A stretch of 64,000 nucleotides of DNA from Alphaproteobacteria bacterium (GCA_965214705.1 OZ243972.1:2688001-2752000); one strand, 5' to 3'; shown: positions 6,368 to 31,992, counted from the stretch's first letter. The notes: generated by a model not told the origin, from the letters alone. Made by a program: numbers and translations.

Positions 6368-6459
6368 TGCATAATGCCGAGAAGGTTGTAATGCCGAGCG
6401 GGTCGCGGGGATCGGCTTAGTTCTGCCGTTTTCCTGCCGATTCGCTCGGCATTAATTGT
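6368..6459. repeat. RIT left inverted repeat (92 bp)
   Basis: Reverse complement of 10015-10106 with one mismatch; internal TAATGCCGAG repeats. Confidence 0.95.
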
Positions 6460-13915: not shown

Positions 13916-14664
13916 CCGGCCTGACCCATCTGAGCGAGACCCAGAAGGCGGTCCTTCTCCTCAACAAGGGCCTCGCGCCGAGGGCGTCGGCGTTGCGGGG
14001 CGATACCGATTACCGCCAGCTGCTGGCGCACTGGCGTGCCGATCCCGAGTTCCGGACCCTGGTACACGAGCTCGCGCCCATGCTCGGCCTCCGGGTGGTC
14101 GACGCACTGGAGCACGCGATCGTGCTCGCGCCGCAGGGTCCGGAGAGCGCGTTCGCTGCGACGCTGACGGATCTGCGCAAGGATCTTGGTGAGATGCCGC
14201 GCGGCGCGCTCGCGCTCATCCACGTGGCGATCGCGGCGACCTTCTTTCCGACTGCGGCGGTGCTGACGGGAATGCAGGAGGATCGAGCGGAGGTATCGGC
14301 GACCCCGGCGCGGATCGCGTCATTGTTGCGCGAGCACTGCCGGCGTCTGGAAGAAGAGTCGGGCAGCGATCCCGAGCTGGAGGAAGCAGGTTTGGTGGAT
14401 GCCTGGCGCGAGCTCGCGCGCCTGCCGGAGACCAGGCCCGACGGCAGCCAGCGCGCAGGCCTGGGCTCGCTCGCCGGCATGGTCAAGCTGGTGCTCAACC
14501 AGCTTCACGAGCACGGGATGGTGCAGACCCTGGAGACGGCGGACGGCGAGACCTACATGGCGACGCCGCGCTACCGGCTGCAGGTGCGCGAGCTCGCGGC
14601 GCACGAGCTGTTCGAGCGCTGCGCCTCGGTCCTGCCGGGCTTTCTGGACGGCGGGAACCGTTGA
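13912..14664 (+). CDS. jetB: Wadjet JetB-like (kite/MksE) subunit
   Basis: 250 aa, winged-helix-like C-terminus (LHEHGMV...YMATPRY), position in operon. Confidence 0.7.
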   Translation: MTGLTHLSETQKAVLLLNKGLAPRASALRGDTDYRQLLAHWRADPEFRTLVHELAPMLGLRVVDALEHAIVLAPQGPESAFAATLTDLRKDLGEMPRGALALIHVAIAATFFPTAAVLTGMQEDRAEVSATPARIASLLREHCRRLEEESGSDPELEEAGLVDAWRELARLPETRPDGSQRAGLGSLAGMVKLVLNQLHEHGMVQTLETADGETYMATPRYRLQVRELAAHELFERCASVLPGFLDGGNR

Positions 14665-17600
14665 ATGCGGTGCATCACGCGCATCCACCTCTCCGACTGC
14701 GGCTGGCACGAGGCGTACTATCCGGGCACGACCGTCCATCTTGCCGATCCGCGCACGGGCAAGCCCGTGCACACGGTGTTCAGCCTGGAGAACACAGGCG
14801 GCAAGACGTCCTTCCTGTCCCTGGTGCTGAGCTGCTTCGACACCAGCGAGCGGCGCTTCCTGAAGACGCTGATCCGTTCGAACCAGAAGTTCGGGGACTA
14901 TTTCGGGGAGGTGCCGGCGTTCATCCTGGTGGAATGGGACCTCTCCGGCGGGCAGGCGGGCCTGCTGGAGACGGAGCGCCTGGTCACGGGTCAGGTGGTG
15001 GTGCCGCGGGGCGAGGGCCGCCAGCGCGAGCTGGAGCGCCGCTTCTTCACGTTCCGGAGCGCGCCGGGCCTCTCTTTCGACGCCATCCCCGCGCCGGGGC
15101 TCGAAGGGTTCGAGGAGCACGGCCGCCTGAGGGGGCATCAGGACGTGCAGCGCTGGCTGCACGAGATGCGCGCGGGTCATCCCGGCAACTTCCAGGATTT
15201 TTCGAAGCAGTCGGACTGGAAGCGGAAGCTCGCCGAAGAGAAGATCGACACGGAGCTTCTGGCGGCGCAGGTCGAGTTCAACCGCAGCGAAGGCGGCATC
15301 GAGGATTTCCTGGATTTCCGGAGCGAGGCGCAGTTCCTGCGGAAGTTCCTGGCGATGACGGTGCCGGACGGGGAGGCGGGTGCTGTGCGGGGTCTGCTTG
15401 CCGAGCACGTGGCGAAGCTCTCGGACCTGCCGCGCCTGCAGCGGCGGCGGGACGCGATGCGCCGTCTGCAGGAAAAATTCGCGCCGTTCGTGGACATCGC
15501 CGCCGGGGCGCACGCCGCGCAGGAGGAGGTCTCGCGGCGCAGCAGCGATGCGTCCTCCCTCAAGGCGGCGCTGGACGAACACGCGGATAGGGCCCGTCGG
15601 CTTGCAGAAGAGCGCGCCGGGGCTGCGGAAGAGCACGAGACAGCCGCCGGCGAAGCCGAGGCGGCATGCGGGAGCGCGAGAATCGAGCTCGCCTCCGCCG
15701 CCGTCGAGACGGCGCGGCGGAGGCACGAGGCCGCCGAAGCGGCCGCCGTTGCCCGCGAGGAGGAGCGCGGACAGGCGCTCGGGCACAGCCGTCTTCTCCA
15801 AGGCGCCGTGTCGATGCGCGGCATTCTCGACGACCGGGACCGGAGCAGGGCGCTGCAGGAGGCGATCGACGCGGAGCATGCCGACCTGCAACCGCGCCGG
15901 GATGCGCTTTGCGCGATCGGCGCGGATCTCGTTTCCACCCTCAATGGGCGCGCCGGGACGTTGCGCGAGCGCCAGCGCGCCCTGTCGGCCGAAGCCCGAG
16001 AGCTGAAGGGGGCGGCGCGCGCGGCCGACGCCGAGCGGGCGGCGGCATCTGAGACCGCGCAGATGGAACACCGGGAGGCGGCGCAGATCGACGTCGACCT
16101 GGGTCATGCGCGCGAATTCCGCGCCAAGCTCGAGGAAGAGCAAGTACTCGAGCCCGGCGAGGGCGCCGATGCGGCGGCGCGGCGCCACGCGGAGGCTGCA
16201 CGGGCTGCGGAAGAAGAGGCAGCCGCGTTTCGCCGTCGGGCCGAGGAGGCGGACCTCACCGCCGCGCGGCGCCGGGAGCGCCAGGGCGACCTCAAGGCCG
16301 AGGGCTCGGTTCTGGAGACCGAGGCGGCGCGGTTGCGGGAAGCCGCCCGCGAAGGCGAGGAGCGGCGCCGGGGCCTGGCCTTCGATCCGACCCTGCTCGA
16401 GCTCGGCGGCGAGAACGAGGTCGACCCGGACGCTGACGCCGCCGGTAGGATGCTGGCGGACGCCAGGAGCGGGTGCACGGCCAGATTGCGCAATGACGAG
16501 CGGCGGCAGGAGGTTCTTCAGGCCGACCGCGAGTCTCTCGAAGCGACCGGCCTCGCGTCTATCGACGCGGACGTGCGCACCGTCGCCGGGCGGCTCCGCG
16601 ACTCCGGCATCGCCGACGCCCAGCCCTATGCCGTCTACCTCTCCGACATCCTGCGTTCGCCGGGAGAGCTCCGCCGCTTCGCCGAGCTTGACCCGGCCCG
16701 CTTCGCCGGTGTCGCCGTTCCCAACCGGAATGCACTCGATGCGGCGCGCCGGATGCTGGAGTCCGTCCCTCCGCTGAGCCGGCCGGTGACCGTCGCGGTC
16801 GCAGGCGACTCGCCGGGAGAGGAGGCGCATGACCGCTTCGTGCTCCCCGTGGACGAGCCGGCCGCCTACGACCGGGCGGCCGCCCGCGACCTGCACCGCC
16901 GGATCGAGAACGATCTGGCCGGCGTGGCGTCGTCGATCGACGCGCAGCAGACGCGGATCGAGCACCTGGAGGCCGTCTTGCAGGAGATCCGGGCGTGGCG
17001 GGAACGCTTCGGCGACGGCCGGCTCGACGGGATGCGGCGGGACATCGAGCGCAAGGACACGCGGATCGCAGAGATCGCAGGCGAGATTGACGCGCTGTCC
17101 GGCCGGATCGAGGCCGCCGAGCGGGACGCCCGGGACTGCCGCAGCAGGGCGGGCGAATGCGATCGCCAGGCCCATGCGTCCGCCGAGCGCGCGCGCCGTG
17201 CCGCCGAACACCACGCGCAATGGGGCTCGCGGGTCGACGGCTGGCGCAAGGCACACCTCGCTCACCGGCAGCGGGCGGCTTCTGCCGAACGCCTCGCCCA
17301 CGAGAAGGAGGCGGAGCGGGATGGTCATACCAGGGAGGCTCGTGCCCGCGAGGACGAGGCGGCAAACGCCGCAAGCATGGCCTCGGACGTGGAGCGCGAG
17401 GCGGGCGGCGTCGCCTACTCGGGACCCGGCGGAAGGGCGGACGGCAATCTCGACACGTTGCGCGGCGCGTACGATCGCGAGCTCGAGGCGCTGACGGCCC
17501 TGGAGCAGGAGCGGGTGGGCGAGTTGCGCGGCCAGCGCCTGGAGATCGAGCGCGCCCTGGCCGAAAAGGAGGACCGCTTCGCGGAGGCGTTCGGCGATCT

Positions 17601-19032
17601 GGAACGCGCCGTGGTCGAGACCGAGGCGGCGCGCGACGGCCTGCGGGAGGCTGCCGCCGGCGCGGTGGCAGCGCTCGAAACGGCGCGCGAGGCTGCATCG
17701 GCCGCCCGTGCGGAGGCGGACTCCGCGGAGAGGGACTACCGCACGGAGAAGGAGAGGCGCACACGGGAGATCCGCCCCGAGCCGCTGACCGACCTGCGTT
17801 CGCTCGCTCCGGAGGCGCTTGCCGGCGTTGAACCACGGGCGGAGTTGGCCATCGTCGAGCAGGAAGCCGTCGCCTCGCGCGAGGCGGATGCCGCGCGGCG
17901 GGCGCGCGAAAAGGCAGCTGGACACGGGCGGACGGCCGCGTCGTGCGCAGACTGGGCCGCCACCCTCGCCGGCGTCCTGGGCGCCGACAGCGCTCCGGCG
18001 GAAAGGATGGAGCTCCCGCGCGAGGACGAGGTGGCCGCGCTGGTCAGCGACACCGTCGCCGCGCTCGGACGGGCTCGCGACGACCTTGGCGAGGCGCACA
18101 AGGCCGTCTACGAGAGCTACGACGACATCCGCAGGTTCACCAGCTCTGACGCCTTCAGGGAGCTCGAGAGCGAGCGGGAGGTCGCCGCGCACCTCGGCGC
18201 CAACGATCCGCTGGCCGCAGCGGAGAACGCGGAGAGGACGGCGGGCCTGATCGACGACCGCCTGAAGACCATCGAGCACGACCTCTCGCGCCTCGACGAA
18301 GACCTCGAGGCCTGCGTGGCGGAGCTGGAACGTCTGCTTCGGACTGCCCTGCACATCCTGCGCCGCATGGTCCGCGACGGGCGCATCCCGGACCACGTGC
18401 CCCGCTTCGGGGGGCAGCCGGTGTTCCGCATGAGCGCCGACCTCTCCCGGGTCGCCGCCGACCAGCGCAGGGAGATCCTCCGCAGCTACGTCACCGACCT
18501 GGCGGAGGCCGACCGGATCCCGGAGACGGGCCAGGACATCACCTCCGAGCTGGTCGAGCGCATGACCGCGGCGCTGGGCAGGGACTCCCTCGGCATCCGG
18601 CTGCTGAAACCCAAGGGCGAGGGCGACACCGAGCACATGCCGATCGACCGGGTGAGCGTCTCGGGCGGCGAGTTGCTGACGGCCGCCATGATGATCTACC
18701 TGGTGCTGGCGCGGCTGCGCGCGGAGGCGATGCACGTCGGCGCGGGCGAGGGCGGCATCCTCATCATGGACAACCCTTTGGGAAAGGCGAACAAGGCCCT
18801 GCTGCTGAAGACCCAGATCGGTCTCGCAGACGCCATGGGGATTCAGCTCTTCTACACGACGGGAGTGCAAGACACGAACGCGCTGGCCGAGTTCGAGAAC
18901 ATCGTGCGGCTGCGGCGCATCGGCCAGTCGCGCGGCTCGCGCCGCATCCATGTGGAAGTCGAGGCCATGCGCGCCCATATCGACAGGCGGGTGGTCGAAG
19001 ACACCGCAAGGCCGGCCGTGGCCGCCGAGTAG
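14665..19032 (+). CDS. jetC: Wadjet JetC SMC-family ATPase
   Basis: Walker A ENTGGKT, long coiled coils, signature VSGGE, Walker B LIMDNP. Confidence 0.88.
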   Translation: MRCITRIHLSDCGWHEAYYPGTTVHLADPRTGKPVHTVFSLENTGGKTSFLSLVLSCFDTSERRFLKTLIRSNQKFGDYFGEVPAFILVEWDLSGGQAGLLETERLVTGQVVVPRGEGRQRELERRFFTFRSAPGLSFDAIPAPGLEGFEEHGRLRGHQDVQRWLHEMRAGHPGNFQDFSKQSDWKRKLAEEKIDTELLAAQVEFNRSEGGIEDFLDFRSEAQFLRKFLAMTVPDGEAGAVRGLLAEHVAKLSDLPRLQRRRDAMRRLQEKFAPFVDIAAGAHAAQEEVSRRSSDASSLKAALDEHADRARRLAEERAGAAEEHETAAGEAEAACGSARIELASAAVETARRRHEAAEAAAVAREEERGQALGHSRLLQGAVSMRGILDDRDRSRALQEAIDAEHADLQPRRDALCAIGADLVSTLNGRAGTLRERQRALSAEARELKGAARAADAERAAASETAQMEHREAAQIDVDLGHAREFRAKLEEEQVLEPGEGADAAARRHAEAARAAEEEAAAFRRRAEEADLTAARRRERQGDLKAEGSVLETEAARLREAAREGEERRRGLAFDPTLLELGGENEVDPDADAAGRMLADARSGCTARLRNDERRQEVLQADRESLEATGLASIDADVRTVAGRLRDSGIADAQPYAVYLSDILRSPGELRRFAELDPARFAGVAVPNRNALDAARRMLESVPPLSRPVTVAVAGDSPGEEAHDRFVLPVDEPAAYDRAAARDLHRRIENDLAGVASSIDAQQTRIEHLEAVLQEIRAWRERFGDGRLDGMRRDIERKDTRIAEIAGEIDALSGRIEAAERDARDCRSRAGECDRQAHASAERARRAAEHHAQWGSRVDGWRKAHLAHRQRAASAERLAHEKEAERDGHTREARAREDEAANAASMASDVEREAGGVAYSGPGGRADGNLDTLRGAYDRELEALTALEQERVGELRGQRLEIERALAEKEDRFAEAFGDLERAVVETEAARDGLREAAAGAVAALETAREAASAARAEADSAERDYRTEKERRTREIRPEPLTDLRSLAPEALAGVEPRAELAIVEQEAVASREADAARRAREKAAGHGRTAASCADWAATLAGVLGADSAPAERMELPREDEVAALVSDTVAALGRARDDLGEAHKAVYESYDDIRRFTSSDAFRELESEREVAAHLGANDPLAAAENAERTAGLIDDRLKTIEHDLSRLDEDLEACVAELERLLRTALHILRRMVRDGRIPDHVPRFGGQPVFRMSADLSRVAADQRREILRSYVTDLAEADRIPETGQDITSELVERMTAALGRDSLGIRLLKPKGEGDTEHMPIDRVSVSGGELLTAAMMIYLVLARLRAEAMHVGAGEGGILIMDNPLGKANKALLLKTQIGLADAMGIQLFYTTGVQDTNALAEFENIVRLRRIGQSRGSRRIHVEVEAMRAHIDRRVVEDTARPAVAAE

Positions 19033-19033
19033 C

Positions 19034-20068
19034 ATGGGCTCGTTCGGGGAGGAACTGCGCGCGCTGGGCAAGCGGCGCATCCGCCTGCCCGAGCTGCGTA
19101 CCGCCTGGCTCCGCGCCCACCCCGAAGCCCGCGACCAGCCGGAGCAGAGGTGCCTGCTCCTCGACGCCCTGCGGGGCCTTGAGAGCGAGGGACTCGTCGA
19201 CCTTCCGAAACGGGGATGGGATACCTCGGGCTCGCCCGCGCTTCCGCGCACCGCCAGCCTCCGGCATGCGGCGCAGAACCGGTACACCCGGACACCTCAA
19301 TCCTGGCTTCCTGCCCTGGCCTTCGCCGCGGGCGAGCGCCACCCCGTGCGGCGTGCCGACCTACAGGCCGTCAACGCGTACCTTCTTTCCGTGCGCGGCA
19401 GGGAGCCCGTGCCGGCGCCGACGAGGGAACGCTCGCTGCAGATATTCGGGGACGAAAAGCGGCTCGACGACCTGCGCAAGGGCGATCCGGCCCTGTTCGA
19501 GGGCCGCGTCACGCTGGCCGATCTCCACTGCTATCCCGTCGCCCCGCCGCTGCCGCACGAAACGCCCCTGAAGCTTGAACCGGGTCGGCCGATCCTGGTG
19601 CTGGAGAACTATCACTCCTGGGACAGCTTCCGCCGATGGAACCGCGACGCTGCGCTCTACGCCGCGATCGCCTACGGCGGCGGCAACGCCTTCCGGCAAG
19701 GCGCCGGCAACCTGGACGATCTGGTGGAGAGTACGCTGGCGAAGGGCGCCATGTACCTCGGCGATCTCGATCCCGCCGGCGTCCGGATACTGATCGGGGT
19801 CAACCGGCGGCGGCAGTCGGAGGGGCGGGCGGTTCTGAACCCGCATCGCGGCCTCTATCGCTGGCTTCTCGCGCACGGCCGCCGGTGTCCCCTGGAGCGG
19901 ACAGCGGAGAATGCGGAGGTCGACGGTCTGGTCGACGTGTTTCCCGCCGACCTCGCGAGGGCGCTGGTGGGGCTCTGGTCTGCAGGGCAGCGCATTCCGC
20001 AGGAGAGCTTTGGCATGGCGCAACTCTCGGGAGTCGAATCCGAATTCGCCGCGCCTGATGCCGGCTGA
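19034..20068 (+). CDS. jetD: Wadjet JetD Toprim (Topo VI-like) nuclease
   Basis: RERSLQIFGDEK, LVLEN, YGGG, YLGDLDPAG, IPQE. Confidence 0.85.
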   Translation: MGSFGEELRALGKRRIRLPELRTAWLRAHPEARDQPEQRCLLLDALRGLESEGLVDLPKRGWDTSGSPALPRTASLRHAAQNRYTRTPQSWLPALAFAAGERHPVRRADLQAVNAYLLSVRGREPVPAPTRERSLQIFGDEKRLDDLRKGDPALFEGRVTLADLHCYPVAPPLPHETPLKLEPGRPILVLENYHSWDSFRRWNRDAALYAAIAYGGGNAFRQGAGNLDDLVESTLAKGAMYLGDLDPAGVRILIGVNRRRQSEGRAVLNPHRGLYRWLLAHGRRCPLERTAENAEVDGLVDVFPADLARALVGLWSAGQRIPQESFGMAQLSGVESEFAAPDAG

Positions 20069-20096
20069 CGCGTGGGGCGGAATGTTGCGGTGGGGA

Positions 20097-20126
20097 CATT
20101 CCCGCCGATGAATGCGTGGGGTGTGA
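20097..20126 (+). other. MOBF-type oriT nic-like site 1
   Basis: CATTC-N8-GAATG hairpin running into TGCGTGGGGTGTG, matching the F nic core as I recall it. Confidence 0.65.
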
Positions 20127-20355
20127 GACCTAAACGCCGCAGGGCGTAGAGAATCGCACTTCCTCCGTGCATCCGCGAGGCGCTGAAAGCCCCGTAGACA
20201 CAACGGCTTGCAGCCCGCGCGGCGTTTGAGCGCGGCACTTCCGACCCTTCCCATCTTCGGACCCGCCGCCGTTACCCGGCGTGTCCTGGGTGTTCCCCAA
20301 CGGGGACGCCCGCGACGCGCCGGTCGCGACCGAAACGAACGGGAGGGATCGGAAC

Positions 20356-21497
20356 ATGGCGAACAGAACGAAGATCACGATGGCGGGCGTGCGCGCCTTC
20401 GCGACTGCGGACGGACGCGAGGCCGTGCTGTGGGACAGCGCGGCACCGGGGCTTGGTCTGCGGGTGCGCTTGAATGGGCGCAAGACGTGGATCGTGCACC
20501 GGCGCTGCAACGGCTTGGTCGTCAAGCGGACGCTCGGCACGCTCGACGCGCTGACGGTCGAGGACGCACGGCACGCGGCGCGGGCGCTGCTCGCCGACGC
20601 CGAAACGGGCGGCGCGGCGGCGGCGGTCCCGACCGTGCGGACATTCGCGCCGGTGTTTCTTGCCGACTGCGCCGAACGCTGGAAGCCCTCGACGCGGGAA
20701 GCCTACGCGCATACCGTGCGGCGCTGGATACTGCCCGCGTTCGCCAACCGCCCGGTCGATGCGATCGGCGCTAAGGATGTGCGTCCTTGGCACGACGACA
20801 TCGCGGCCATGTATCCGGGCTCGGCGCACTGGGCGCTCGCGGCGATGTCGTCGATGATGAAGCACGCCGAGGCACTCGGCCTGCGGCGCGAGGACTCCAA
20901 CCCGTGCAAGGGACTGCGGCGGCGCAAGACCGGCTTCGAGGCGCACTACCTGACGGACGACGAGTTCGCCGCGCTCGGTCGGGCGCTCGACGGCGCGGAA
21001 GCGGATCATCCGGTCGCCGTCGCCGTGGTGCGCTTCCTGCTCTACACCGGCGCGCGCAAGTCCGAGGCGCTGCGGCTCAAGTGGGAGCATGTTCACGGCG
21101 ACCGCGCGGTGTTGCCCGACTCGAAAACCGGCCCGCGCACGATCTGGCTGGCGTCCCCGGCCCGCGCCGTGCTCGCGGCGCGGCTACGGCGCACCAATTG
21201 CCCTTGGGTGTTCGCTTCTCCCTGCGGCGGGCCTGCGACGGTGGACAGGGAATGGAACGCGATCCGCGCGGCGGCGGGCCTGCCGACGCTGCGCATCCAC
21301 GACCTCCGGCATAGCCATGCGGCGGTCGCGGTCAACGGCGGCGAGGGCCTGCGCGTCGTCGCCGGGCTGCTCGGCATGCCGACATCAAGACCACCTTCGG
21401 CTATGCGCACCTTGCCGAGGACTCCGTGTTCGACGCGGCCAACCGGGTGTCGCGCGGCCTCGCCGACATGCTCGACGGCGGGGAGGCGGGCCGATGA
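20356..21497 (+). pseudogene. Tyrosine integrase with arm-binding domain, 1-bp deletion frameshift at ~21375
   Basis: LWD..PGLGLRV, TGARKSE, SKTG, HDLRH; GH motif broken, ADIKTTFGYAH continues in another frame. Confidence 0.85.
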
Positions 21498-22654
21498 CCG
21501 AACGCGCCCGCCTGACCGATGCGCTCGCGCTCGCGGCTCGTCCGCGCGAGCGCGAATACGCAATCCACGATACCGCCCTGCAAGGCTTCATGCTCCGCGT
21601 CCAGCCGCACGGCGCGCGGTCCTGGGTGTTCCGCTTCCGCCGCGACGGCAAGCCGCGCCGCGTCACGCTCGGTAAGCCGGACGCGGTGAAGGCCGACCAG
21701 GCGCGGGCCGCCGCGCTCGCCTTCCTCGCCCGCGAGAAGGGCGGCGGGAGTCCCGTGCCCCTTCCCGCTTCCGGCCCGACGCTGGCGAAGTTCGCCGCGG
21801 AGTATGTCGAGCGGCGCTCGCCTTCATGGAAGTCGTCCACGGTGAAGGCGACCCTGAGTTACCTCAACAGCGCCATCCTGCCCGCGCTCGGCCATCTCCG
21901 CGTCGGCTCGGTCGTGCGCGCCGATGTCGCCCGCTTCTTCCACGAATACGGACGCAGAAAGCCGGGCGGCGCGAATCGAAGTCATGACATACTGCGCAAC
22001 ATGTTCGACTGCGCCATCGTGTGGGGCCATCGGCCCGAAGCCGCCGGGAACCCGTGCAAGGGCATCGTCCGCTACCGGCGACCGCCGCGCGGGCGGCTGC
22101 TCGGCGCGGACGATCTGGCGAAGCTCGGCGCGGTCCTGCGCCAGCGCGAAGACGAATACCCGGTTTGCGTTGCGGCGGTGCGGCTGCTCCTGCTGACCGG
22201 GTGCAGGCCGGGCGAGATACGCCGTCTGCGCTGGTGCGAGGTCAAGCCGGACCGGCTCGCGCTGATTGACGCGAAGACGGGACCGAGGCACGTTCTGCTT
22301 GGCGAGGCGGCGCGGGAGCTGCTGCATGGCCTCGCCGAAATGGCGTCTGGAGAGTGGGTGTTTCCGGGCGGCAAGGGAAACGGGCCGTTGAGTACGAATG
22401 ACCTTTGGGCGTTCTGGACCAAGGCGCGCGATGCTGCCGGTATCGTGGCGGATGCGCGGCTGCATGACCTGCGTCATGCGCACGCCTCGCACGCGGTCAT
22501 GAACGGCGAGAGTCTGCATGTCGCGGGGCGCTTGCTCGGGCATCGCCGGGCCACAACGACCAACCGCTACGTCCATCTCGACGACGCGACCCTGAGCCAA
22601 GCTGCAGAACGGGTAGCGGTGGCGATTCAACGGCGACTGTGGCACTCTCCGTGA
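21494..22654 (+). CDS. Second tandem tyrosine integrase
   Basis: IHD..LQGFMLRV, TGCRPGE, HDLRH, LLGH, TNRY; ATGA overlap. Confidence 0.9.
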   Translation: MTERARLTDALALAARPREREYAIHDTALQGFMLRVQPHGARSWVFRFRRDGKPRRVTLGKPDAVKADQARAAALAFLAREKGGGSPVPLPASGPTLAKFAAEYVERRSPSWKSSTVKATLSYLNSAILPALGHLRVGSVVRADVARFFHEYGRRKPGGANRSHDILRNMFDCAIVWGHRPEAAGNPCKGIVRYRRPPRGRLLGADDLAKLGAVLRQREDEYPVCVAAVRLLLLTGCRPGEIRRLRWCEVKPDRLALIDAKTGPRHVLLGEAARELLHGLAEMASGEWVFPGGKGNGPLSTNDLWAFWTKARDAAGIVADARLHDLRHAHASHAVMNGESLHVAGRLLGHRRATTTNRYVHLDDATLSQAAERVAVAIQRRLWHSP

Positions 22655-22686
22655 TGGACAACACCAAACTCTATTCCGAGGGTTTC

Positions 22687-23085
22687 ATGTACATTGAAGA
22701 AACGATTGCAACAATCCTTATATCTGCTCTGGTTTCTGGGTTGCTCGCAACCTGCGTTTCCTTCTACCTAAATCGCAAACACACCAAAGACTTGATAAAG
22801 CGGGACGTCCACCGACGTCTCGTAGGCAATCGTTCCGTTTTGACTAAACCGGGTGTCGGGGTCAAGGGCGAGCCCTTCATCGCCTTGAACGAGACGTTTG
22901 TAGTATACGCGGCACATCCGGAGGTCATTTCCGCCCTCCGCAAGATGCATGAGGAACTCGCCTCACCAGATCGAATGCCCGACAACCTAGTGAGTCTCGT
23001 CAAAGCTATGGCTAAGGCCGCGAAGGTGCCTATTCATCAGCTAAACGACGATTTTTTCCTGCGGCCATTCACTCCACCATCTTGA
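22687..23085 (+). CDS. Small N-terminal TM protein (DUF6680-like, tentative)
   Basis: Hydrophobic N-terminal helix, ALNETFVVY, LVKAMAK. Confidence 0.6.
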   Translation: MYIEETIATILISALVSGLLATCVSFYLNRKHTKDLIKRDVHRRLVGNRSVLTKPGVGVKGEPFIALNETFVVYAAHPEVISALRKMHEELASPDRMPDNLVSLVKAMAKAAKVPIHQLNDDFFLRPFTPPS

Positions 23086-23100
23086 GTTCTGGTGGTTTCT

Positions 23101-23586
23101 ATGGTGGATACTAGAACTCCAGAACAACGCCGACGCATTATGCAGGCAGTCAAGAGCGAAAACACCGCGCCAGAGCTGATCGTCCGACGACTGTTGCATG
23201 GAATGGGCTATAGATACCGACTTCATCGCACGGACCTGCCTGGGCGACCGGACATCGCCTTAATCTCGCGCCGAAGAGCTATCTTCGTTCATGGTTGCTT
23301 TTGGCATGGTCACGACTGCCGAAAGGGAAAGCTGCCCAAATCGCGCCTCGACTATTGGGGACCGAAACTAGAAAGGAACAAGGAACGCGATAAAGAAAAG
23401 GCGGAAATGCTAGAATCATTAGGTTGGGGGGTGCTCGTAGTGTGGCAGTGTGAAACGGTCGATCTTGTCGCACTTACGTCACGACTTCATGAATTTATTG
23501 GTAGCAGAGATTTCCGATTGAAACAAAAGGTAGACCTCCGCAATTCTGCCAACATTAGAGTCGAGAAACGAGAGGCGGCGTCATGA
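23101..23586 (+). CDS. vsr: Very short patch repair endonuclease
   Basis: D...RRRIM...NTAPE, LPGRPD, FVHGCFWHGH, VWQC. Confidence 0.95.
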   Translation: MVDTRTPEQRRRIMQAVKSENTAPELIVRRLLHGMGYRYRLHRTDLPGRPDIALISRRRAIFVHGCFWHGHDCRKGKLPKSRLDYWGPKLERNKERDKEKAEMLESLGWGVLVVWQCETVDLVALTSRLHEFIGSRDFRLKQKVDLRNSANIRVEKREAAS

Positions 23587-24914
23587 GACCTATCGGTGTA
23601 GACTTGTTTTCTGGCGCAGGTGGGCTTAGCTTGGGATTCGAGCAAGCGGGATTCGACATAGTCTCTGCCGTCGAGATCGATCCTGTGCACTGTGCGGCTC
23701 ACAAGTATAACTTTCCGCATACAGTTACCATTCCTAGATCTATCGAGGAAGTCTCCGGCAAACATATTCTAGAGATGTCGGGAGTCGGACAACGCGAAGT
23801 GGATTGCGTTTTCGGTGGCGCTCCCTGTCAGGGATTCTCGTTAATCGGTCACCGAGTACTTGACGATCCTCGTAATCGATTAGTTCGGGAGTTCGTTCGT
23901 ATTGTTGTTGAATTAGAAGCCCGAACGTTCGTATTCGAAAACGTGAAGGGATTGACGGTTGGCAAACACCGAGCGTTCTTGGATGAGCTAGTCGATGAGT
24001 TTTCACAGGTTGGCTACAGGGTACGGGTCCCTTGGAAGGTTCTGAACGCCGGTCACTTCGATACTCCACAAAGTCGGGAACGACTGATCCTCCTTGGTGC
24101 GAGAGTTGGAGAAGTTTTGCCTGAGTATCCCGCCATTCTGACCAATATCGCCGCTGGGCGCAATCACGTCGAGGGTCTGCCCATCGGGCCGACATGTACG
24201 GATGCTCTAGGGGACCTTCCCGACGCGGATCGATTTCCGACTCTGATTGGCTCGGATGCCGTGATTACGTCTTCGTTCCGCAAGCCGTCGATGTATGCGG
24301 CACGACTTCGATGTCTCACCAACGACGCTTGGCACTTCGGTTATGTGCGGGAGTGGAGGCCCGGGATGCTGACATCGAGTGCTCGAACGGCACACACTCC
24401 CATTTCGCGCAAGCGGTTTAGTCATACGAAGTCGGGGACAGTGGAGCCTATCAGCAGATTTTTCAAGCTTTGTGAATCGGGTGTCTCAAACACCCTCCGC
24501 GCCGGAACGGACGGGGCACGAGGCGCGTTCACGAGCCCGCGCCCTATTCACTATAGGTATGATCGCTGTATTACCGTGCGCGAGATGGCAAGATTGCACG
24601 GTTTCCCTGACTGGTTCCGCTTCAATGCAACGAAATGGCATGGTGCACGACAGATCGGCAATGCCGTACCGCCGCCGCTGGCGAGAGCTATAGCCGGAAA
24701 GGTGGTCGAGGCTTTGGGAGTTAGACCAAGCAGGCCGGTGAAGCCAATCCCGTTAGGCGATTCCGCGCTCCTTTTGTTCGATCTTTCCCAAGCTGCCGAG
24801 TTCTTCGGGGTGAAACCGTTACCCAGTCGCCGCGACAGAAAGAGCGGAGCGAAGAAACGCAAGCAAATTGAGATCGAGCGTGAACGCATGGCAGAGAGCA
24901 AGGCTCATGCCTAA
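23583..24914 (+). CDS. dcm: DNA cytosine-5 methyltransferase
   Basis: FSGAGG, PCQGFS, ENV, QSRER, TVREMARL, GNAVPP. Confidence 0.95.
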   Translation: MRPIGVDLFSGAGGLSLGFEQAGFDIVSAVEIDPVHCAAHKYNFPHTVTIPRSIEEVSGKHILEMSGVGQREVDCVFGGAPCQGFSLIGHRVLDDPRNRLVREFVRIVVELEARTFVFENVKGLTVGKHRAFLDELVDEFSQVGYRVRVPWKVLNAGHFDTPQSRERLILLGARVGEVLPEYPAILTNIAAGRNHVEGLPIGPTCTDALGDLPDADRFPTLIGSDAVITSSFRKPSMYAARLRCLTNDAWHFGYVREWRPGMLTSSARTAHTPISRKRFSHTKSGTVEPISRFFKLCESGVSNTLRAGTDGARGAFTSPRPIHYRYDRCITVREMARLHGFPDWFRFNATKWHGARQIGNAVPPPLARAIAGKVVEALGVRPSRPVKPIPLGDSALLLFDLSQAAEFFGVKPLPSRRDRKSGAKKRKQIEIERERMAESKAHA

Positions 24915-25680
24915 ATCGCTAAACCGATATCAGGCACTCATCGAGAAGGTGTTCTTCGATCACTTTGAAGAAGGGCTGACCGAGTTCGAATTCCTGCGCG
25001 AAGAACTCGAAGAAGGTGCTGCGTCACTTGGATTCGCTCGTGTGAAGAATATTGGGGATGTTCCTTACTCTTTTCGATACCGGAACAAGCTACCTGACAG
25101 CGTTTTGGATACACAGTCGAAAGGCCGCGAATGGATAATCGAGGGCGCGGGTAAAGGACGCTATCGATTTCGGCTAGTTAAGCAAACGCGTATAGAGCCA
25201 CGGGCTGATCGAGTTGTCATAGATATACCGGACGCAACGCCGGAGGTAATTCGGGCATACGCATTGGATGATGAGCAGGCCCTCTTGGCGATTGTTCGTT
25301 ACAATCGGTTGATTGACATATTTCTTGGCCTGACGACCTATAGCCTCCAAAATCATCTTCGAACGACCGTAGAGGGCATGGGGCAAATCGAGATTGATGA
25401 ACTCTACATCGGACTCGATAAGAGCGGCGACCACTTCGTTATCCCTGTTCAAGCCAAAGGCGGGAAGGATCACATAGGTATCGTCCAGACTACGCAAGAT
25501 ATCCGGTTTTCCGAGCAGAGATTTCCTAATCTTGCGTGCCGGGCAATTGCGGTGCAGTTTATGGATGACCAGATCGTCGCACTATTCGAGCTAACCCTTC
25601 GAGGCGACGACATCAAGGTCGTGGAAGAACGACACTACAGGTTGGTTCCAGCCGAGGACCTGAAACGGGATACGAGATAG
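24907..25680 (+). CDS. Putative PD-(D/E)xK restriction endonuclease
   Basis: DEQALL, QIEIDE...PVQAK; overlaps the MTase stop. Confidence 0.7.
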   Translation: MPKSLNRYQALIEKVFFDHFEEGLTEFEFLREELEEGAASLGFARVKNIGDVPYSFRYRNKLPDSVLDTQSKGREWIIEGAGKGRYRFRLVKQTRIEPRADRVVIDIPDATPEVIRAYALDDEQALLAIVRYNRLIDIFLGLTTYSLQNHLRTTVEGMGQIEIDELYIGLDKSGDHFVIPVQAKGGKDHIGIVQTTQDIRFSEQRFPNLACRAIAVQFMDDQIVALFELTLRGDDIKVVEERHYRLVPAEDLKRDTR

Positions 25681-25741
25681 GCTAGGATGCACGCCCATGG
25701 TTTGAGACAAAGCCCCTTGGCGCGGGCGTCGGTGAAACAGA

Positions 25742-26323
25742 ATGCCTCTAACCACGTTGACAAGGCTGAAAGACGAGCTTCTGGACCTCTACGGAGAAGA
25801 CCAGATAGCGGTGTTCGCGACGACGACCGCGCGCAAGCAAGTGGATGACTGGTTGAAAGGCGGAGCGACCAAGGTCAACAACAGGCTGTCATTTGGGCAG
25901 GACGACCCCAATGAACCCGCAGCCGTTGCCGACTACTCGGTGACCTTCGCCGAGCTTCTTGCTCGATTAGATTCTGCCAGCCGACAGGCCAAGGCCGTGC
26001 GCGCAAGGTTGATCGTGTTCGCCTATACATTGTGGGAGAAGGTCTATCGACCGGCCATCAGTCGGGAGTGCGGCGTGGATCGCATAGACAGCGATGCGTT
26101 CGGAGATTTGCGTCTGTACCGACACGCCATCCTCCACCACAAAGGGAAGCTGGATACCGACACCACAGCTCTGACGGTGTTCGGCAAGGGCGACCTCATA
26201 GAACCGACCGCTGATCAGCTACGCGAGGTTTTCAAGCAGTTGGTGGTCGGACTCATCGACATAGGGGTACGCTACTACGGAGAGGACCCCGGTTTCGAGT
26301 GGGGACGCAAACTGAACCCGTAG
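25742..26323 (+). CDS. Putative HEPN-domain protein
   Basis: Helical protein with DLRLYRHAILHHKG (Rx4H). Confidence 0.55.
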   Translation: MPLTTLTRLKDELLDLYGEDQIAVFATTTARKQVDDWLKGGATKVNNRLSFGQDDPNEPAAVADYSVTFAELLARLDSASRQAKAVRARLIVFAYTLWEKVYRPAISRECGVDRIDSDAFGDLRLYRHAILHHKGKLDTDTTALTVFGKGDLIEPTADQLREVFKQLVVGLIDIGVRYYGEDPGFEWGRKLNP

Positions 26324-26540
26324 GGCAAGTGTCGGCTCGGCTGTCAGAAAGTGTGCCAGCAATTCAGATTGAGCCATTACCTGAGATAGGCGAGGGGTGA
26401 CGGACATGCTAGGTTCGTGTCCTGAGAGTTGGGCGGGTACGGAGTAAGAGGAAGTCGGAATAAGGCTGCTGTGGGTTCTCAAGCCACTGAAATAGCATCC
26501 TTTTTTTCAGGCTAGGGTGCGAGGGCACGGGGCTAGTCTA

Positions 26541-26564
26541 GCATCCCGGATGCGTGGGGTGTGA
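26541..26564 (+). other. MOBF-type oriT nic-like site 2
   Basis: GCATC-CCG-GATGC hairpin then GTGGGGTGTGA; 15-bp direct repeat of 20112-20126. Confidence 0.65.
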
Positions 26565-27068
26565 TGCTCCGGCCGCGTGCCCCGTATTGAGACCCCGAAG
26601 TGAAGCGCGCGGGCTGCTGATCGTCACAGTTCCAGTTCGAGCTCGTATTCGATCGTCTTGGGCCCGCGCTCCTTCACCGGCTCCGGCGCCTTCGCAGGTT
26701 CGGGTGCCCGCGCGGGTCGGGGTGCCGGAGCGGGCGGCTGCTCCCTCTCCGGTTCCGGCGTTCTCGCGGGCGTGGGCCGTCGTGTCCTTTCCGGCTCGTG
26801 GGCCGGCGCCTCGGGTCGGGACTCCGGTACCCGGTCCCTGGCGGGCGCAGGCGCCGTCCTTCTCCCGGGCTGTCGAGTCGGTGACTCCGGCCGTGCCTCC
26901 GTCCTCGGACTCCTTGCAGTTGCGGTCGGACGCATCGTCGCGGGTTCGCCGGCCAGCCCGTGCCGCTCGATCTCCCTTTCCCTGCTCGTGGCCGCTTCGC
27001 GTGCCTGCGCCTGCCTGGCCTGCTCCATCCTCCTCGCCAGTTCCGCCGCAGCGGCGACGCCCTCTAGT

Positions 27069-29228
27069 CCCAAGTTGGCACTTTTTCCGACCAGCCGAGC
27101 CTGTTCGAGCCAGTTTTGCGGCGCTGAACCACTAGATGTTGGGGTTGGAGGACACCTGAGACCCACATTTGCCATTCGTGGTCCTGGAAGCCAATTGTGG
27201 GGCCAGGACTTTGGAGTTGAGTCGATATCCCTCTTGCCAGATGCCGCGAACGCCGTGTATGCGAAACAGGCATCGCAGAAACGGCGCCGCCATGTACATC
27301 AAGGCAACCAGGACACACACCGACAAGGCCGGCCAGCCGGTCCGAAGCCATCGCCTCGTGCTCGCCCAGCGCGTCGGCGACAAGGTGCGCCACAGGACGC
27401 TGCTCAATCTCGGCACCGACTATCCGGTGCCGCGCGAGAAGTGGAAGGCCGTCACCGAACTCGCCGAGGCGCTGCTTCACGGCAAGCCGCCGCTGTTCGA
27501 GGGCGAGGCGGATGTGCGGGCCGCAGCCGAGGACATCGTCGCCAAGCTCAGGGCCAGGGGGTTCCGCGTCGAGGCGATGCAGGAAGAGGCGCGCAAGCCC
27601 GACATCGCCACCGTCGACCTCGATACCCTGGAGCACGAGAACCCGCGCACGGTCGGCTGCGAGCGCCTGTGCCTCAAGGCCCTCGACGCCCTCGGCTTCG
27701 CCGAAATCCTCCACGGCCTCGACATCAAGGGCCGCGACGGGCGCATCGCCAGCGCGCTGATCGTCGCCAGGATGGTCCATCCCGCCAGCGAGCGTGATAC
27801 CAGCCGCTGGCTCCGCCACGACAGCGCGGCCGCCGAGCTCCTGGGCCTGGAGGGCGACCGCAAGGCGCTGCGGCGCAAGACGCTCTACCGCATCGGCGAC
27901 CTGCTCTGGCGCCACCGCGCCGCCATCCAGCGGGAGCTGTTCAACCGTGAGCGCGCACTGCTCGACCTGCCCGAGACGATCGCCTTCTACGATCTCACCA
28001 ACGTCCACTACCACGGCCACACGGGCGGCGAGCTTCCCAGGTTCGGGCGCTCCAAGCAGAAGCGCGACGACTGTCCCCTCATCACGCTGGCGCTGGCGCT
28101 CGACGGCGCGGGCTTCCCGCGCAGTTGCGAGATCCTGCCGGGCAACGTGAGCGAGCCGGGCACGCTGCACGAGGCGCTGGCGCGGCTCGAGGCGGTGTGC
28201 GGCGGCACGGCGCCGAAGCCCACGGTGGTCATGGACGCGGGCATCGCCACCGAGAAAAACATCGCGTGGCTGGGCGAGCAGGGCTACGACTGGATCGCGG
28301 TCAGCCGCGGTGCCAGGCCTGCGCCGCCCGAGGGCGGACCCGAGGCCCTGCTGATCACCAGCGCGCGCCACGAGGTGCGGGCCTGGCGGCTTGCCAGCGA
28401 GGACGGCGAGGCGCGGCTCTACGTCGTCAGCGAGGGCAAGAAGAAGGCCGAGAACGCGATCATCGGCCTGAGGCGGAACCGCTTCGAGGCGGCGCTGGAA
28501 AGGCTCCACGGCGGCCTTGCGGTCAAGGGCCGCCTCAAGCGCTACGACAAGGTGCTGGAGAGCATAGGCCGCCTCAAGCAGCGCTTCTCCGCCGTCGCCA
28601 GGCACTACGAGATCACGGTCGAGAGGGCGAAAACCGGCCCCAATGCCACCGCCGTGCGCTTCAAGCGCAGGCCGCGATACGACGAGGCCGATGAGGGCGC
28701 CGGTGCCTATGTGCTGCGCACCAGCCACGTCGACTGGGACATCGAGACGGTCCTGCGGACGTACTGGCGGATCACGGATATCGAGGCGACATTCCGGAGC
28801 CTGAAATCCGAGCTCGGCCTTCGCCCGATCTGGCACCAGCTCGACCGGCGCATCGCGGCCCACCTGCTGATCGCCGTGCTGGCCTACCACGCCGTGCATC
28901 TGATCCGTACCCGGCTGGCCGCGCGCGGCATCCACAAGTGCTGGGCGTCGATCCGCGAGAGCATGCGGACCTGGGTGCGGATCACCACGCGCCTGCGCCA
29001 GACCGACGGCACCTTGATCGTCAACCGCCAGGACACGCGCCCGGCCGCCGAGGTTGCCGCAATCTCCTCGGCGGCGGGCGTGGACCCCGCCATCCACCGC
29101 ACGAGGACCCGTCTGATGAGCTGACAGAATCTCACAAAATGTGGGGCCATGTTGGAATCGACCGAGAAAAATATCGCGTTGAATCAAACCAATAGGGAAC
29201 ACAGGCAGCGGAAAAGTGCCAACTTGGG
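27069..29228 (+). mobile_element. IS1634-family insertion sequence
   Basis: Terminal IRs CCCAAGTTGGCACTTTT / AAAAGTGCCAACTTGGG, TAGT duplicated on both sides. Confidence 0.9.
27292..29124 (+). CDS. IS1634-family DDE transposase
   Basis: FYDLTN, FGRSKQKR, VVMDAG, IEATFRSLKSELGLRPIWH. Confidence 0.92.
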   Translation: MYIKATRTHTDKAGQPVRSHRLVLAQRVGDKVRHRTLLNLGTDYPVPREKWKAVTELAEALLHGKPPLFEGEADVRAAAEDIVAKLRARGFRVEAMQEEARKPDIATVDLDTLEHENPRTVGCERLCLKALDALGFAEILHGLDIKGRDGRIASALIVARMVHPASERDTSRWLRHDSAAAELLGLEGDRKALRRKTLYRIGDLLWRHRAAIQRELFNRERALLDLPETIAFYDLTNVHYHGHTGGELPRFGRSKQKRDDCPLITLALALDGAGFPRSCEILPGNVSEPGTLHEALARLEAVCGGTAPKPTVVMDAGIATEKNIAWLGEQGYDWIAVSRGARPAPPEGGPEALLITSARHEVRAWRLASEDGEARLYVVSEGKKKAENAIIGLRRNRFEAALERLHGGLAVKGRLKRYDKVLESIGRLKQRFSAVARHYEITVERAKTGPNATAVRFKRRPRYDEADEGAGAYVLRTSHVDWDIETVLRTYWRITDIEATFRSLKSELGLRPIWHQLDRRIAAHLLIAVLAYHAVHLIRTRLAARGIHKCWASIRESMRTWVRITTRLRQTDGTLIVNRQDTRPAAEVAAISSAAGVDPAIHRTRTRLMS

Positions 29229-31992
29229 TAGTGCCGACACGCGCTCCCCGGTCGCGGCCTCCAGGCGGTCGCACAGCGCCTTCGCGTCGTCCGTCACCAG
29301 CTCCGTCCGGTGCCTCGCACGGCTGATCTCCACGTAGAAGCTCTTCTGTGTGGTCAGGTGGGGGTGATTGGCCTCCATCACCGCGATCACGTTGTCCACC
29401 GTGCGACCCTGGAACGCATGCACCGTCGATGCCCAGGCATGATCGAGATGGCGCAGCTGCGGGTCGTGGCGACCCAGCTCCAGCTTGCAGCCGTCCTCAA
29501 GCAGGAACGAGACCCGGTCGCCCCGCACCGCCGTCACCTCGGCCGCGTGGCTGTTCACCAGCCCGAGCGTGGCATCGTTGCGGGTCCAGCGGATGCGGTC
29601 GCCCGCCCGAAGTTCTATCGGCTCGCTCCGGTATACCTCCACCGCGCCGCGGCTCGCTCCTACCTGGCGCGGGCGCCAGGGCACAGCCTCGCCGTCCGCG
29701 CCTTCCAGCATGACAATGCCGCGCGCACCGTCGACCTCGCGCACCCGGCGCTCCTCGCCTTTCTCCACGCCGAGGCTCTTGTAGGCCCGGTGGAAGGCCA
29801 CCACGTCGCCCTGCGCGTAGTTGGCGGCCTGCATCTTTTCGGCCGCGGTGCAGCCGCGCGACACCAGCCGCTCGCCCTCCAGGGCCGAGCCGTGGATGAC
29901 GCCGTCACGGGCGAGGCGCTCGCGGATGTGCCCGTTGACCGTCTGGCGCAGCTCATGGCTCGGCGCCATCAGTCCGGTGTTCTCCCGCTCCTCAAGCGAG
30001 AGCTTCAACCATCGAGCGGCCGCAGCACCGGCGAGATTGTCGGGCTTCACCTCCGCGACACGGTCGCCTAGCCTGTCGAACGCGGCACGGACGTCGCCCG
30101 CCAGGCTGGCCCGCACCGCCTCCTTCAGCGCCGGGTCCTTCTGCCGCAGGATATCGTCCATCACCACGGTCTTCATGCCCGCTTGCTGAAGCTGCGCGAA
30201 GGGCTTGCCCGCATCCACGGCGTCGAGCTGCTTCTCGTCGCCCACCAGCACCACCCTCGGGATCCTGAGCCTGTCGGCGATCCGCAGCAGGTCACGGGCC
30301 TGGACGGTGGATGCCAGAGAGCCCTCGTCCACCACCAGCACCGTCTTGCGGAAGGCGGCCCGCATCTCGCGCTCGCCCCTGGCCGTCAGCCGCCCCTCGG
30401 CCACGCCTGCGTTGCGCGCCAGGAACCGCTGCAGGGTCTCGCTCCGGATGCCGGCCTCTGCTGCCAGCGTCGCCGTCGCAGACGCCGAGGGCGCCAGGCC
30501 GATCATCCGGTAGCCGCTCTTCTCCGCGAGCGAACGCGCGCGGTCCAGCATCGCGGTCTTGCCGGTGCCGGCATAACCCTGCACGCCCACCACCCGGTCC
30601 TTCGAGGAGAGGATCGCGGTGACCGCGTCTTTCTGACCCTCGGTCAGGCGGCCATTGTGCAGCAGCGGCTTCGCCATCCAGCGCCGCATCACGGGCTTCG
30701 ACCTGCCTTGCCCGCGCTGCATGAGCGCGACGGTCTCGGTCTCGTCGATGAGGGCCTTCTCGGTGGTGAGCGCGTCGCCCAGCACGGGCGTCCTCGCGGC
30801 ATGCAGAGTGCCCGCTTGCTCCAACCGCTGCACCGCTCCCTCGGCCTCGCCGATGGTGACCTTGCCGGGGCTCCAGGCAAGCGTGGCGGTGAGCAGGTCG
30901 GTGCGGGCGAACACGGCCTCGCGTTCCGAGAGGTGTGCCACCGCCCAGGCGGCGGCGCGGTCCGCATCGCTTGTCCTGCCGGGCTCCGCCTCACGGTTGT
31001 AGCCGGTAGAAGGTAGGGAGCGCGCCCGATGCGCCGCCTGCCGGTGCCGGGCCTCGTTCACGAGGTCCCGTGCGTCGAAGCCCAATTCCGAGGCCTGCCT
31101 CTGCCAGGTCTCCCGCAGCGCCTCCTTGTCTACGTCGCGCTTGTGCGAGCGGGTCATCAGCGCCGCGCGCTCGGCGACCCGCTGGTTGCTTGCAGGATCG
31201 CCCAGACCCTGCGCCTCCATCGCCGCCTCACGCGCCGCATCTCCGCTCGGCGCGTGGAGAAGGCCTCGACGACCTTGCGCGAAACCCCCGCAATCTCGAA
31301 GCGCCCGTCGGCATGGGTCTTCTCGACCGCGTAGCCCAGATCCTTCAGCCCGCGCGCCAGCTCGGCCCGGTAAACTGCGCCGATCAGCATCTTGGACGCA
31401 TAGAGCTTCTCGTTCGCCATCGTGCGCCACTTGCCGGACCGGGGCGCTCCCCTTTCGCCGCCCTGCACCATGTTGGCGATCACCGCGTGCGTATGCAGCT
31501 GTGGGTCCAGGTTGCGGGACGTGTCGTGCCGGAACGTGGCTGCCACGATCGACTGATCGCCGGCGCGCACCATGCGCCCGAGCTCGGGGTCCATCATCCT
31601 GGTCTCGGCCGCGTTGGCCTCGATCCAGGCCAGTGCCTTGCGCACGGCAGCGTCATGGGCACCGACGATGCGCTCGTCGCCGCCGACCAGCGCGGCAAGG
31701 GAGACGGACTTGGGGGCCGAGAAGGCGAGGTCCCTGCCGGGACGGTGGTCGATCTCGCCCTCCCTGTTCCTGCGGCCCAGGCGTAAGCCTGAGCCGTCGG
31801 GGACTTCGCCGGCGAGGACGTCGATGAAGATGTCCGGGTCGACGGAACCCTCCAGGCCCAGCGCCTCCGCTCCCTTGCCGAACCAGGCGCTGGCCTGCCG
31901 GTGCGCGGGATCGTCCTTCGCGTAGTATCCGTCGCGTTCGTAATAGGAGACGCCCTGGGAGGGCGAGGCAACTGCGCCGATCGAGACCACCA

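Follow-up and report, generated by a model that had tools for sequence, protein, structure and literature searches.

Gene content and ends of the cassette

The subject of this study is a putative mobile element at positions 20112-26564 of a 64,000-nucleotide stretch of DNA (hereafter the window; G000:C1:2688001-2752000), which belongs to a genome of 7.9 Mb with 67% G+C in three contigs. The interval is delimited by a 15-mer, ATGCGTGGGGTGTGA, that is present exactly twice in the window, at 20112-20126 (copy 1, the attL core) and at 26550-26564 (copy 2, the attR core), both times on the + strand. The chance expectation for this 15-mer is 0.11 matches, and two matches were obtained in 0 of 100 shuffles, which places the direct repeats beyond chance; their positions agree with those given in a preliminary description of this DNA. 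No further copy was found in the window at up to two mismatches; the 15-mer is not among the 20 largest repeat families of the window, and both copies were found by direct motif search. In copy 1, a nick of the F type would fall at 20124/20125, and the zone of strand exchange that we mapped lies at approximately 20120-20123. We interpret 20112-26564 as the decayed copy of a small integrative and probably mobilizable element that has no relaxase, was inserted by integrases and has ends that mimic an origin of transfer (oriT), a reading to which we assign a probability of about 0.68.

All genes of the element lie on the + strand. A conserved non-coding left end (20127-20355), containing a second hairpin (ACGCC at 20134-20138 with GGCGT at 20143-20147) followed by TAGAGAATCGCA, leads to two overlapping genes for P4-like tyrosine recombinases. 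Integrase 1 (20356-21497) matches the Pfam families Arm-DNA-bind_3, Phage_int_SAM_3 and Phage_integrase and is frameshifted, while integrase 2 (21494-22654; 386 aa), also assigned through Pfam, is intact. Alignment and three-frame reading against the intact copies of two relatives (G008 and G013) located the frameshift near 21374/5, just past the LLG motif, with the C-terminal histidine and tyrosine in another frame. As a consequence, the last catalytic His and Tyr are lost from integrase 1 of the window, whereas RIHDLRH, LLGH and the tyrosine are kept in integrase 2 and in the intact integrase 1 of both relatives. Some public contigs carry an extra C after 21374, which gives an intact integrase 1 allele, and the frameshift in the window may be either a real mutation or an assembly error. 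Apart from short variable islands, conservation of the stretch 20160-20355, upstream of integrase 1, comes close to that of the genes, and arm-type integrase sites, a promoter or a structured leader may lie there. The idea of a leading-region promoter active on single-stranded DNA and serving the integrases was dropped, since the sense strand of the integrases is the strand that would be transferred and cannot be the template.

Five cargo genes follow, all of them single-copy in the genome, and the G+C content falls from approximately 70% over the integrases to 50-56% over the cargo. The first (22639-23085) encodes a 148-aa protein with one hydrophobic stretch and no family in Pfam, NCBIfam or PADLOC. 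It is followed by genes for a Vsr very-short-patch repair endonuclease (23092-23586; Pfam Vsr, E 1.5e-31; TIGR00632, E 2.1e-48), a type II C5 cytosine DNA methyltransferase (23583-24914; Pfam DNA_methylase, E 3e-60; PADLOC MTase_II, E 1.9e-169) and a type II restriction endonuclease (24868-25680; PADLOC REase_II PDLC03404, E 3.6e-123; no Pfam match). By its predicted products, this cluster of methyltransferase, restriction enzyme and Vsr is a complete type II restriction-modification system. The last gene (25742-26323) encodes a 193-aa protein with no significant family in Pfam, NCBIfam or PADLOC; an Rx4H motif is visible by eye only, the nearest Atlas clusters are unnamed, and HEPN clusters score just 0.79-0.80; the 'HEPN-like' label of the preliminary description is tentative. 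Pfam, NCBIfam and PADLOC agree with the tandem integrases, Vsr, methyltransferase and endonuclease named in the preliminary description. In the same family scans, none of the seven open reading frames (ORFs) of the element was recognised as a relaxase, a coupling protein or a mating-pore gene, and no excisionase-like gene was recognised in the element.

The right end carries a hairpin abutting the core (hairpin 1, 26541-26553, + strand: GCATC, loop ccg, GATGC), which is found family-wide. At the left junction a weak inverted repeat, CATTC/GAATG, lies on the target side (20097-20114, + strand); it takes no part in the minimum-energy fold (z 0.03), the relatives' empty sites contain nothing that corresponds to it, and we judged it to be due to chance. 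Of the two hairpins that had been proposed, one at each copy, both can be read in the sequence, but only GCATC/GATGC recurs across the family. Around copy 2 there is also an 11-bp inverted repeat with one mismatch (26523-26533 and 26573-26583), whose left arm GCACGGGG is found again at the right ends of two related elements (L042 and L076) and whose right arm is target DNA.

Empty sites and a family with variable cargo

Sixty-one genomes were queried with window positions 18000-27068 in a search for empty sites. In G005 the match covers jetC and jetD, upstream of the cassette, as far as window position 20090, and 76 bp further on it continues on the 3′ end of the downstream relaxase gene from 26607, without the cassette. 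The same cassette-free passage from jetD to the relaxase 3′ end was found in G010, with a gap of 52 bp, and in G014 and G017 the jetD-side flank is kept and the cassette is absent. With four relatives lacking the cassette and with homology starting exactly at 20112, the existence of a discrete mobile module bounded by the 15-mers is well supported; contigs from other places likewise show a break of homology exactly at 20112. The expectation of a single 15-mer at the empty site held less well: cassette-free relatives do exist, but in G005 and G010 the site resembles the 15-mer at only about 8 of 15 positions, and G014 is somewhat closer on the left half. The target was therefore a look-alike rather than a canonical nick region. 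A target-site duplication made by a transposase was considered and rejected, as the same core recurs at element ends in unrelated sites. In public data, both junctions are spanned by Logan contigs of runs X17 and X20, the left one over 19941-20229 without differences and the right one over 22922-26648 and 26172-26592.

A reading of the cassette's site as the origin of transfer of the island that hosts it is not borne out. The syntenic origin-like site of this island, identified through synteny with the closest paralogous island on contig C3 and a motif scan, lies at approximately 11296-11320 on the minus strand and comprises the core variant GAGTCAGGTGTGA together with two hairpins, the first of them GCACC/GGTG. 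Since the site that was hit is not the origin of the island, the nearness of the relaxase gene to copy 2 is incidental. A MOBF relaxase gene does end 60 bp from copy 2, as had been reported, but this TrwC-type relaxase-helicase gene (26624-31993, minus strand; Pfam TrwC, E 1.9e-75, and AAA_30) is a pseudogene, with a frameshift near 31230-31240, where its paralogues read through, and an inserted insertion sequence (IS); an intact gene of 1040 aa is held by G017.

The host island occupies the left 40 kb of the window and includes a P4-like integrase (39355-40617), a coupling protein, the TrwC relaxase, a recombinase trio and a type III Wadjet system, and core genes (polA, lon, clpXP, tig and zwf) fill 47-64 kb. 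The Wadjet genes jetA-D (12494-20068, + strand; PADLOC JetA3, JetB3, JetC3 and JetD3) are cargo of the host island, jetD ending 44 bp before copy 1. The type IV coupling protein, of the TrwB/TraD type (31993-34212, minus strand; Pfam TrwB_AAD_bind, E 6.4e-132), is full length in the window (739 aa), and its closest relatives (contig C3 of the same genome, G005 and G017) match only its first ~110 residues. The IS that splits the relaxase gene spans 2161 bp (27069-29229, + strand) and encodes a DDE_Tnp_1 transposase of 651 aa (27169-29124); approximately 96 genomic copies are 98-100% identical. A minus-strand ORF of 736 aa at 27064-29274 was considered as a part of the relaxase or a novel protein and discarded as spurious, being antisense to the DDE transposase of this IS. 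Three tandem tyrosine recombinase genes (6518-10015) are inserted between the YAcAr gene of the island and its origin-like site, and the first of them has 99.8% identical copies at two other places of C1. Genome-wide, tblastn returned 126 and 152 matches to the two integrases, with many tandem pairs ~1.2 kb apart, dozens of Toprim and YAcAr genes and 35 matches to a TrwC-domain query. There are also many units in which an Xer-like integrase adjoins a Y2 transposase of the IS91 type.

By comparison with related loci, the interval 20112-26564 is one member of a family of integrative elements of 3.7-6.7 kb with shared ends and variable cargo. From left to right they consist of a core of 13-15 bp, a non-coding end of 230 bp, two overlapping integrase genes, variable cargo and a 5-bp hairpin abutting a core. 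The element of G013 illustrates this layout. Its 89% match to the window begins exactly at 20112 and stops at 22623, where integrase 2 ends; its cargo is different, and it has a core variant of its own at either end, the two copies lying 3.7 kb apart. Scans with integrase 2 yielded 121 relatives in species genomes, of which 80 were kept, together with 64 loci in contigs of metagenomes. Relatives of 83-95% identity come under the titles Rhodobacteraceae, other Alpha- and Gammaproteobacteria, Acidobacteria, Terriglobia, Bryobacterales, Pedosphaera, Binatia, Nitrospinota, Gemmatimonadota and Poribacteria; several of the assemblies reach chromosome level, and many of the relatives come from sponge samples. 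Public runs holding small shares are mostly labelled sponge, coral or marine metagenomes, labels from which we draw no habitat. Among 72,556 plasmids no relative of integrase 2 reached 60% identity, the best having 41.6%.

A probe from the left end, internal to the element, matched 28 places, five of which were dropped (L130, a duplicate of L129; L160-L162, where the match lies downstream of an integrase; and L113, which has a right flank of the type found in integrative and conjugative elements, ICEs). In the remaining 23 distinct loci the left end directly follows the core, and the order is the same: after the core come 6-8 variable nt, the second hairpin, which is conserved, TAGA..ATCGCA and a further ~200 nt of non-coding DNA, likewise conserved, that reach to integrase 1. 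Over ~219 nt this end is 80-93% identical in more than 20 loci from differently labelled metagenome-assembled genomes (MAGs); 19 loci entered the left-end alignment. A right end, defined as a perfect 5-bp hairpin abutting a core with at most two mismatches, lies 3.7-6.7 kb downstream in 10 of the 23. Homologous integrase pairs thus occur with the same motif and with variable cargo, as had been anticipated. Both integrase genes are 80-90% identical among uninterrupted copies, and the cargo carries restriction-modification domains in 6 of the 9 two-ended elements scanned (the window, L030, L034, L035, L042 and L055), none being recognised in that of L040, L025 and L110.

Two of these loci have three cores in direct repeat (L035 at 1699, 8621 and 15303; L034 at 2172, 8621 and 14709). 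The first interval of L035 holds an EcoRI methylase, a GmrSD-HNH gene and an IS, without integrase, and the triple cores suggest either tandem accretion or cassettes that lack an integrase and lie between origin-like sites. Among more distant relatives, plasmid pTAV1 of Paracoccus versutus (L174) has a site at 6370-6420 in which the core TGCATCAGGTGTGA stands between two hairpins. This site precedes, by ~200 bp, a pair of overlapping integrase genes with 40% identity to integrase 2, after which brnT/brnA come; no second core was found on pTAV1 within 8 kb. In L090, L093 and L105, whose integrases are 38-41% identical, a full origin-like site begins ~40 bp past the end of the integrase, at position 11146, so that a site of this kind is placed differently there.

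Origin-like core and position of strand exchange

The preliminary description had recognised in the core an F-type nick sequence, and the comparison agrees with it. TGCGTGGGGTGTG is common to the core and to the F oligonucleotide cut by TraI of F after GTGT, and 13 of 13 bases are identical in both copies of the window (PMC2504302). As described there, the F site is recognised 5′ of the nick, as TGCGTGGGGTGT, followed by the nick and then a G. Regarding the relaxase TrwC of R388, a minimal target of 14+3 nt has been reported, containing the nick as well as the proximal arm of inverted repeat IR2 (PMC3264647). At the right end of our element the proximal arm of hairpin 1 overlaps the core and 14 nt separate the start of the arm from the predicted nick, a geometry that agrees with this 14+3 target. 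The proximal arm lies within 14 nt of the nick in copy 2 and in all 10 right ends, whereas the repeat at copy 1 is at chance level only.

Across all loci, 31 of 281 core-like sites have a perfect abutting hairpin (a few rows of this count are duplicate records). The stems are GCATC/GATGC in 23, GCACC/GGTGC in five and GCACT/AGTGC in one, the other two being likely chance pairs; the stems co-vary, and the sequence of the loops is free. The host genome has nine further sites, three on contig C2 and six of a second type, that are built of a hairpin, a core, a spacer, a second hairpin and TAG, and each lies 0.75-4.7 kb downstream of a YAcAr gene in an ICE-like element. The left flank of copy 2 corresponds to the left half of this ICE-type architecture and the right flank of copy 1 to its right half. 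Since each junction flank fits one half, the circularised ends would rebuild an origin-like site complete with hairpin 1, core and hairpin 2, like the ICE-type sites of the genome.

Junctions of family members were compared using the core numbering G1 C2 G3 T4 S5 G6 G7 G8 T9 G10 T11 G12 A13, in which the F-type nick is 11|12. Wherever target and element differ at core positions 1-8, attL has the base of the target and attR that of the element (L034, L040, L043, L051, L055 and L110), and eight right junctions depart from the element consensus right after G12. The element of L042 interrupts a ridA-like gene. On its left side, positions 44-120 of the Ribonuc_L-PSP profile match; on its right side, the sequence running through attR is the N-terminal part and aligns to RidA/YjgF structures (E 0.025-0.06, a 63-aa piece), including a glutamine that is encoded by CTG at core positions 10-12. 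The C at position 10 of this attR is therefore native target sequence, and exchange occurred at least 2 nt 5′ of the F-type nick. In L057, attR departs at position 11. Together these junctions place the exchange between 6|7 and 9|10, which fits the overlap of a tyrosine recombinase around GGGTGTG, provided that single mismatches are tolerated. Joining by a relaxase exactly at the F-type nick is contradicted by L042. Because the joint there is not at the nick, relaxase-made insertion is unlikely, and an insertion made by the integrases is favoured.

Competing explanations and known systems

According to the explanation just mentioned, an incoming MOBF relaxase would have joined an origin-bearing circle into a nick-like target, the integrases being passengers or having another role. 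There is precedent for it, as TrwC integrates transferred DNA into its 17-bp (14+3) target and into look-alikes (PMC3264647), and most of our junction pairs fit a break at 11|12, including the eight that depart right after G12; moreover, many of the targets are complete origin-like sites that have a hairpin themselves. Apart from the joints of L042 and L057, however, the spacing between hairpin and TGTGA differs in the targets of L055, L040 and L053, the two integrase genes stay conserved beside the site across the family, and the bases that several targets have at -4 or -2 from the nick fall where, according to the F study, changes to the three interacting bases (-1, -2 and -4) can dramatically reduce binding (PMC2504302). 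In addition, TraI of F is stated not to perform the recombination reaction (PMC3264647). We consider this origin of the insertion improbable, and give slightly less weight still to the view that the core is an ordinary integrase attachment site that resembles a nick by chance and has no link to conjugation. A chance resemblance would suit the core length, 15 bp being usual at attachment sites of P4-like integrases, the lack of a hairpin in about half of the targets and the unremarkable hairpin energies. Against it stand the co-varying hairpin, the second hairpin that comes next, the architecture shared with nine fixed-position sites in ICE-like elements with TrwC relaxases of the same genome, and the same architecture preceding the 40%-identical integrase pair of pTAV1, in addition to the 13 of 13 identity with F (PMC2504302) and the 14-nt geometry (PMC3264647).

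A further possibility concerns how the element leaves its site and is no alternative to insertion by the integrases, being compatible with the reading that we prefer. The element could be a parasite of conjugative transfer without an excision step, its two ends being the two halves of a transfer origin. A helper relaxase of the MOBF type, resident in the cell, would start at the left junction and stop at the right one, sending one element circle (attP), made without an excisionase, into the recipient, where the two integrases would act for the only time and insert it into the next origin-like site. Landing in a real origin would leave two working origins, so that the host island could transfer with or without the element. 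We regard this release by conjugation as a tentative proposal. The 14 nt 5′ of the predicted nick are kept at both junctions, the canonical hairpin that termination requires is always present at the right junction, the element has no recognised excisionase-like gene, and joining the 5′ side of one nick to the 3′ side of the other gives the same product as excision by an integrase; origin-to-origin recombination by relaxases is established for R388 (PMC3264647). It would also explain why copies that are 83-95% identical turn up under several phylum labels, in many cases in sponge samples. On the other hand, small excisionases are easily missed, the contigs contain no circle joint, copy 1 has no hairpin at non-origin targets such as that of the window, and no intact cognate relaxase lies nearby in the window.

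Several observations weigh against our preferred reading of an integrase-inserted element with origin-mimicking ends. Hairpin folding energies at the ends, which are putative MOBF-type oriT nick sites, are not beyond those of shuffled sequences (z -1.0 to -1.65; hairpin 1, z -1.0), so hairpin 1 is supported by covariation only. A search for circle and empty-site joints had been proposed as a check; none of the 15 joints listed in public contigs links 26564 to 20127 (circle) or 20126 to 26565 (empty site), although contigs drop rare forms and this absence carries little weight either way. In 13 of the 23 loci the available DNA has no right end, and only 4 of these 13 are short of sequence (<5.6 kb); both integrases are uninterrupted in just 7 of the 23, decay being common. 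Phylum labels are titles of MAG records, in which binning errors are possible. The decisive junction comes from a single locus, L042, and two left junctions (L044, with A at core position 12, and L081, with CT at 11-12) fit neither model unless later mutation is assumed. No single stretch of 6-8 bp is identical between element and target in all pairs, so that a classical overlap region needs tolerated mismatches, and no dyad-symmetric integrase binding sites were seen around the core.

Between the two alternatives set out in the preliminary description, the relaxase-less satellite whose integrases use origin-like sites as attB nevertheless fits best. Both integrases would act together on an asymmetric site, recombining attP of the circle with sites that share the GGTGTG part of the core. 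The targets would often be transfer origins of MOBF islands and plasmids and sometimes look-alikes, as in this window; many targets of the family are indeed origin-like, and about half are not origins. Once excised, the circle could be nicked and mobilized in trans by the MOBF relaxases of resident conjugative elements. We infer this mobilization from an attP that is a full origin mimic, and it would explain the spread across phyla. The copy in the window is probably immobile, with integrase 1 frameshifted and the adjoining relaxase broken; taken alone it is a fossil, and the interest lies in the family. As a sequence-level model, the family describes a minimal island that ties its integration site to the transfer origin of its helpers. 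In this model the origin would come together in the circle only, and landing pads would be provided by the origins of the helpers. Through such a vehicle, restriction-modification systems may pass between bacteria that are distant relatives, many of which come from sponge samples, and the family supplies natural junction pairs for the interplay of integrase and relaxase at one site.

The closest parallels are the mobilizable genomic islands (MGIs) of Vibrio, relaxase-less islands that mimic the SXT origin (PMC5704250), and the 'iOriT' elements, relaxase-less islands with an origin mimic (preprint 10.64898/2026.01.13.699239). As reported for both, they have their own integrase, a copy of a resident-type origin and defence cargo, and no relaxase or mating-pore genes. 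The window element resembles them: it has an integrase of its own, a direct repeat at each end and relatives in which the site is empty. In contrast to them, the origin mimic of the present family is split by integration and coincides with the attachment core, being whole only in the circle or when inserted inside a real origin. There are also two tandem integrases, versus a single recombinase in 82% of the islands (10.64898/2026.01.13.699239), and the elements measure just 3.7-6.7 kb and reside in uncultured hosts, many from sponge samples and under several phylum labels. Streptococcal integrative and mobilizable elements offer a second parallel, as their tyrosine integrases insert into the putative oriT of ICEs of the Tn916 and ICESt3 families (PMC5357655, citing Puymege 2015). 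These too are small mobilizable elements inserted site-specifically into the transfer origin of a conjugative element, but their hosts are Firmicutes and other relaxase families are involved, and about half of the targets of the present family are not origins.

The comparison with relaxase systems is equally mixed. With TrwC of R388 the family shares an insert flanked by two direct nick sites, and TrwC accepts minimal 14+3 and look-alike targets (PMC3264647), whereas the joint of L042 is off the nick position and the present element brings its own tyrosine recombinases. With oriT of F it shares TGCGTGGGGTGTG, and F is also the source of the cleavage position, after GTGT, that we use (PMC2504302); the flanks of F differ, however, the abutting hairpin is a feature of the R388 type, and the present nick sites are predicted from sequence. 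In the literature on tandem or dual integrases and on attP-oriT insertion, subscription papers and supplements being outside its scope, our search found no description of this element family. Set beside these known systems, four of its features appear new: a core that is a split mimic of an F-type origin, the tandem integrase pair, the very small size and the occurrence under several phylum labels.

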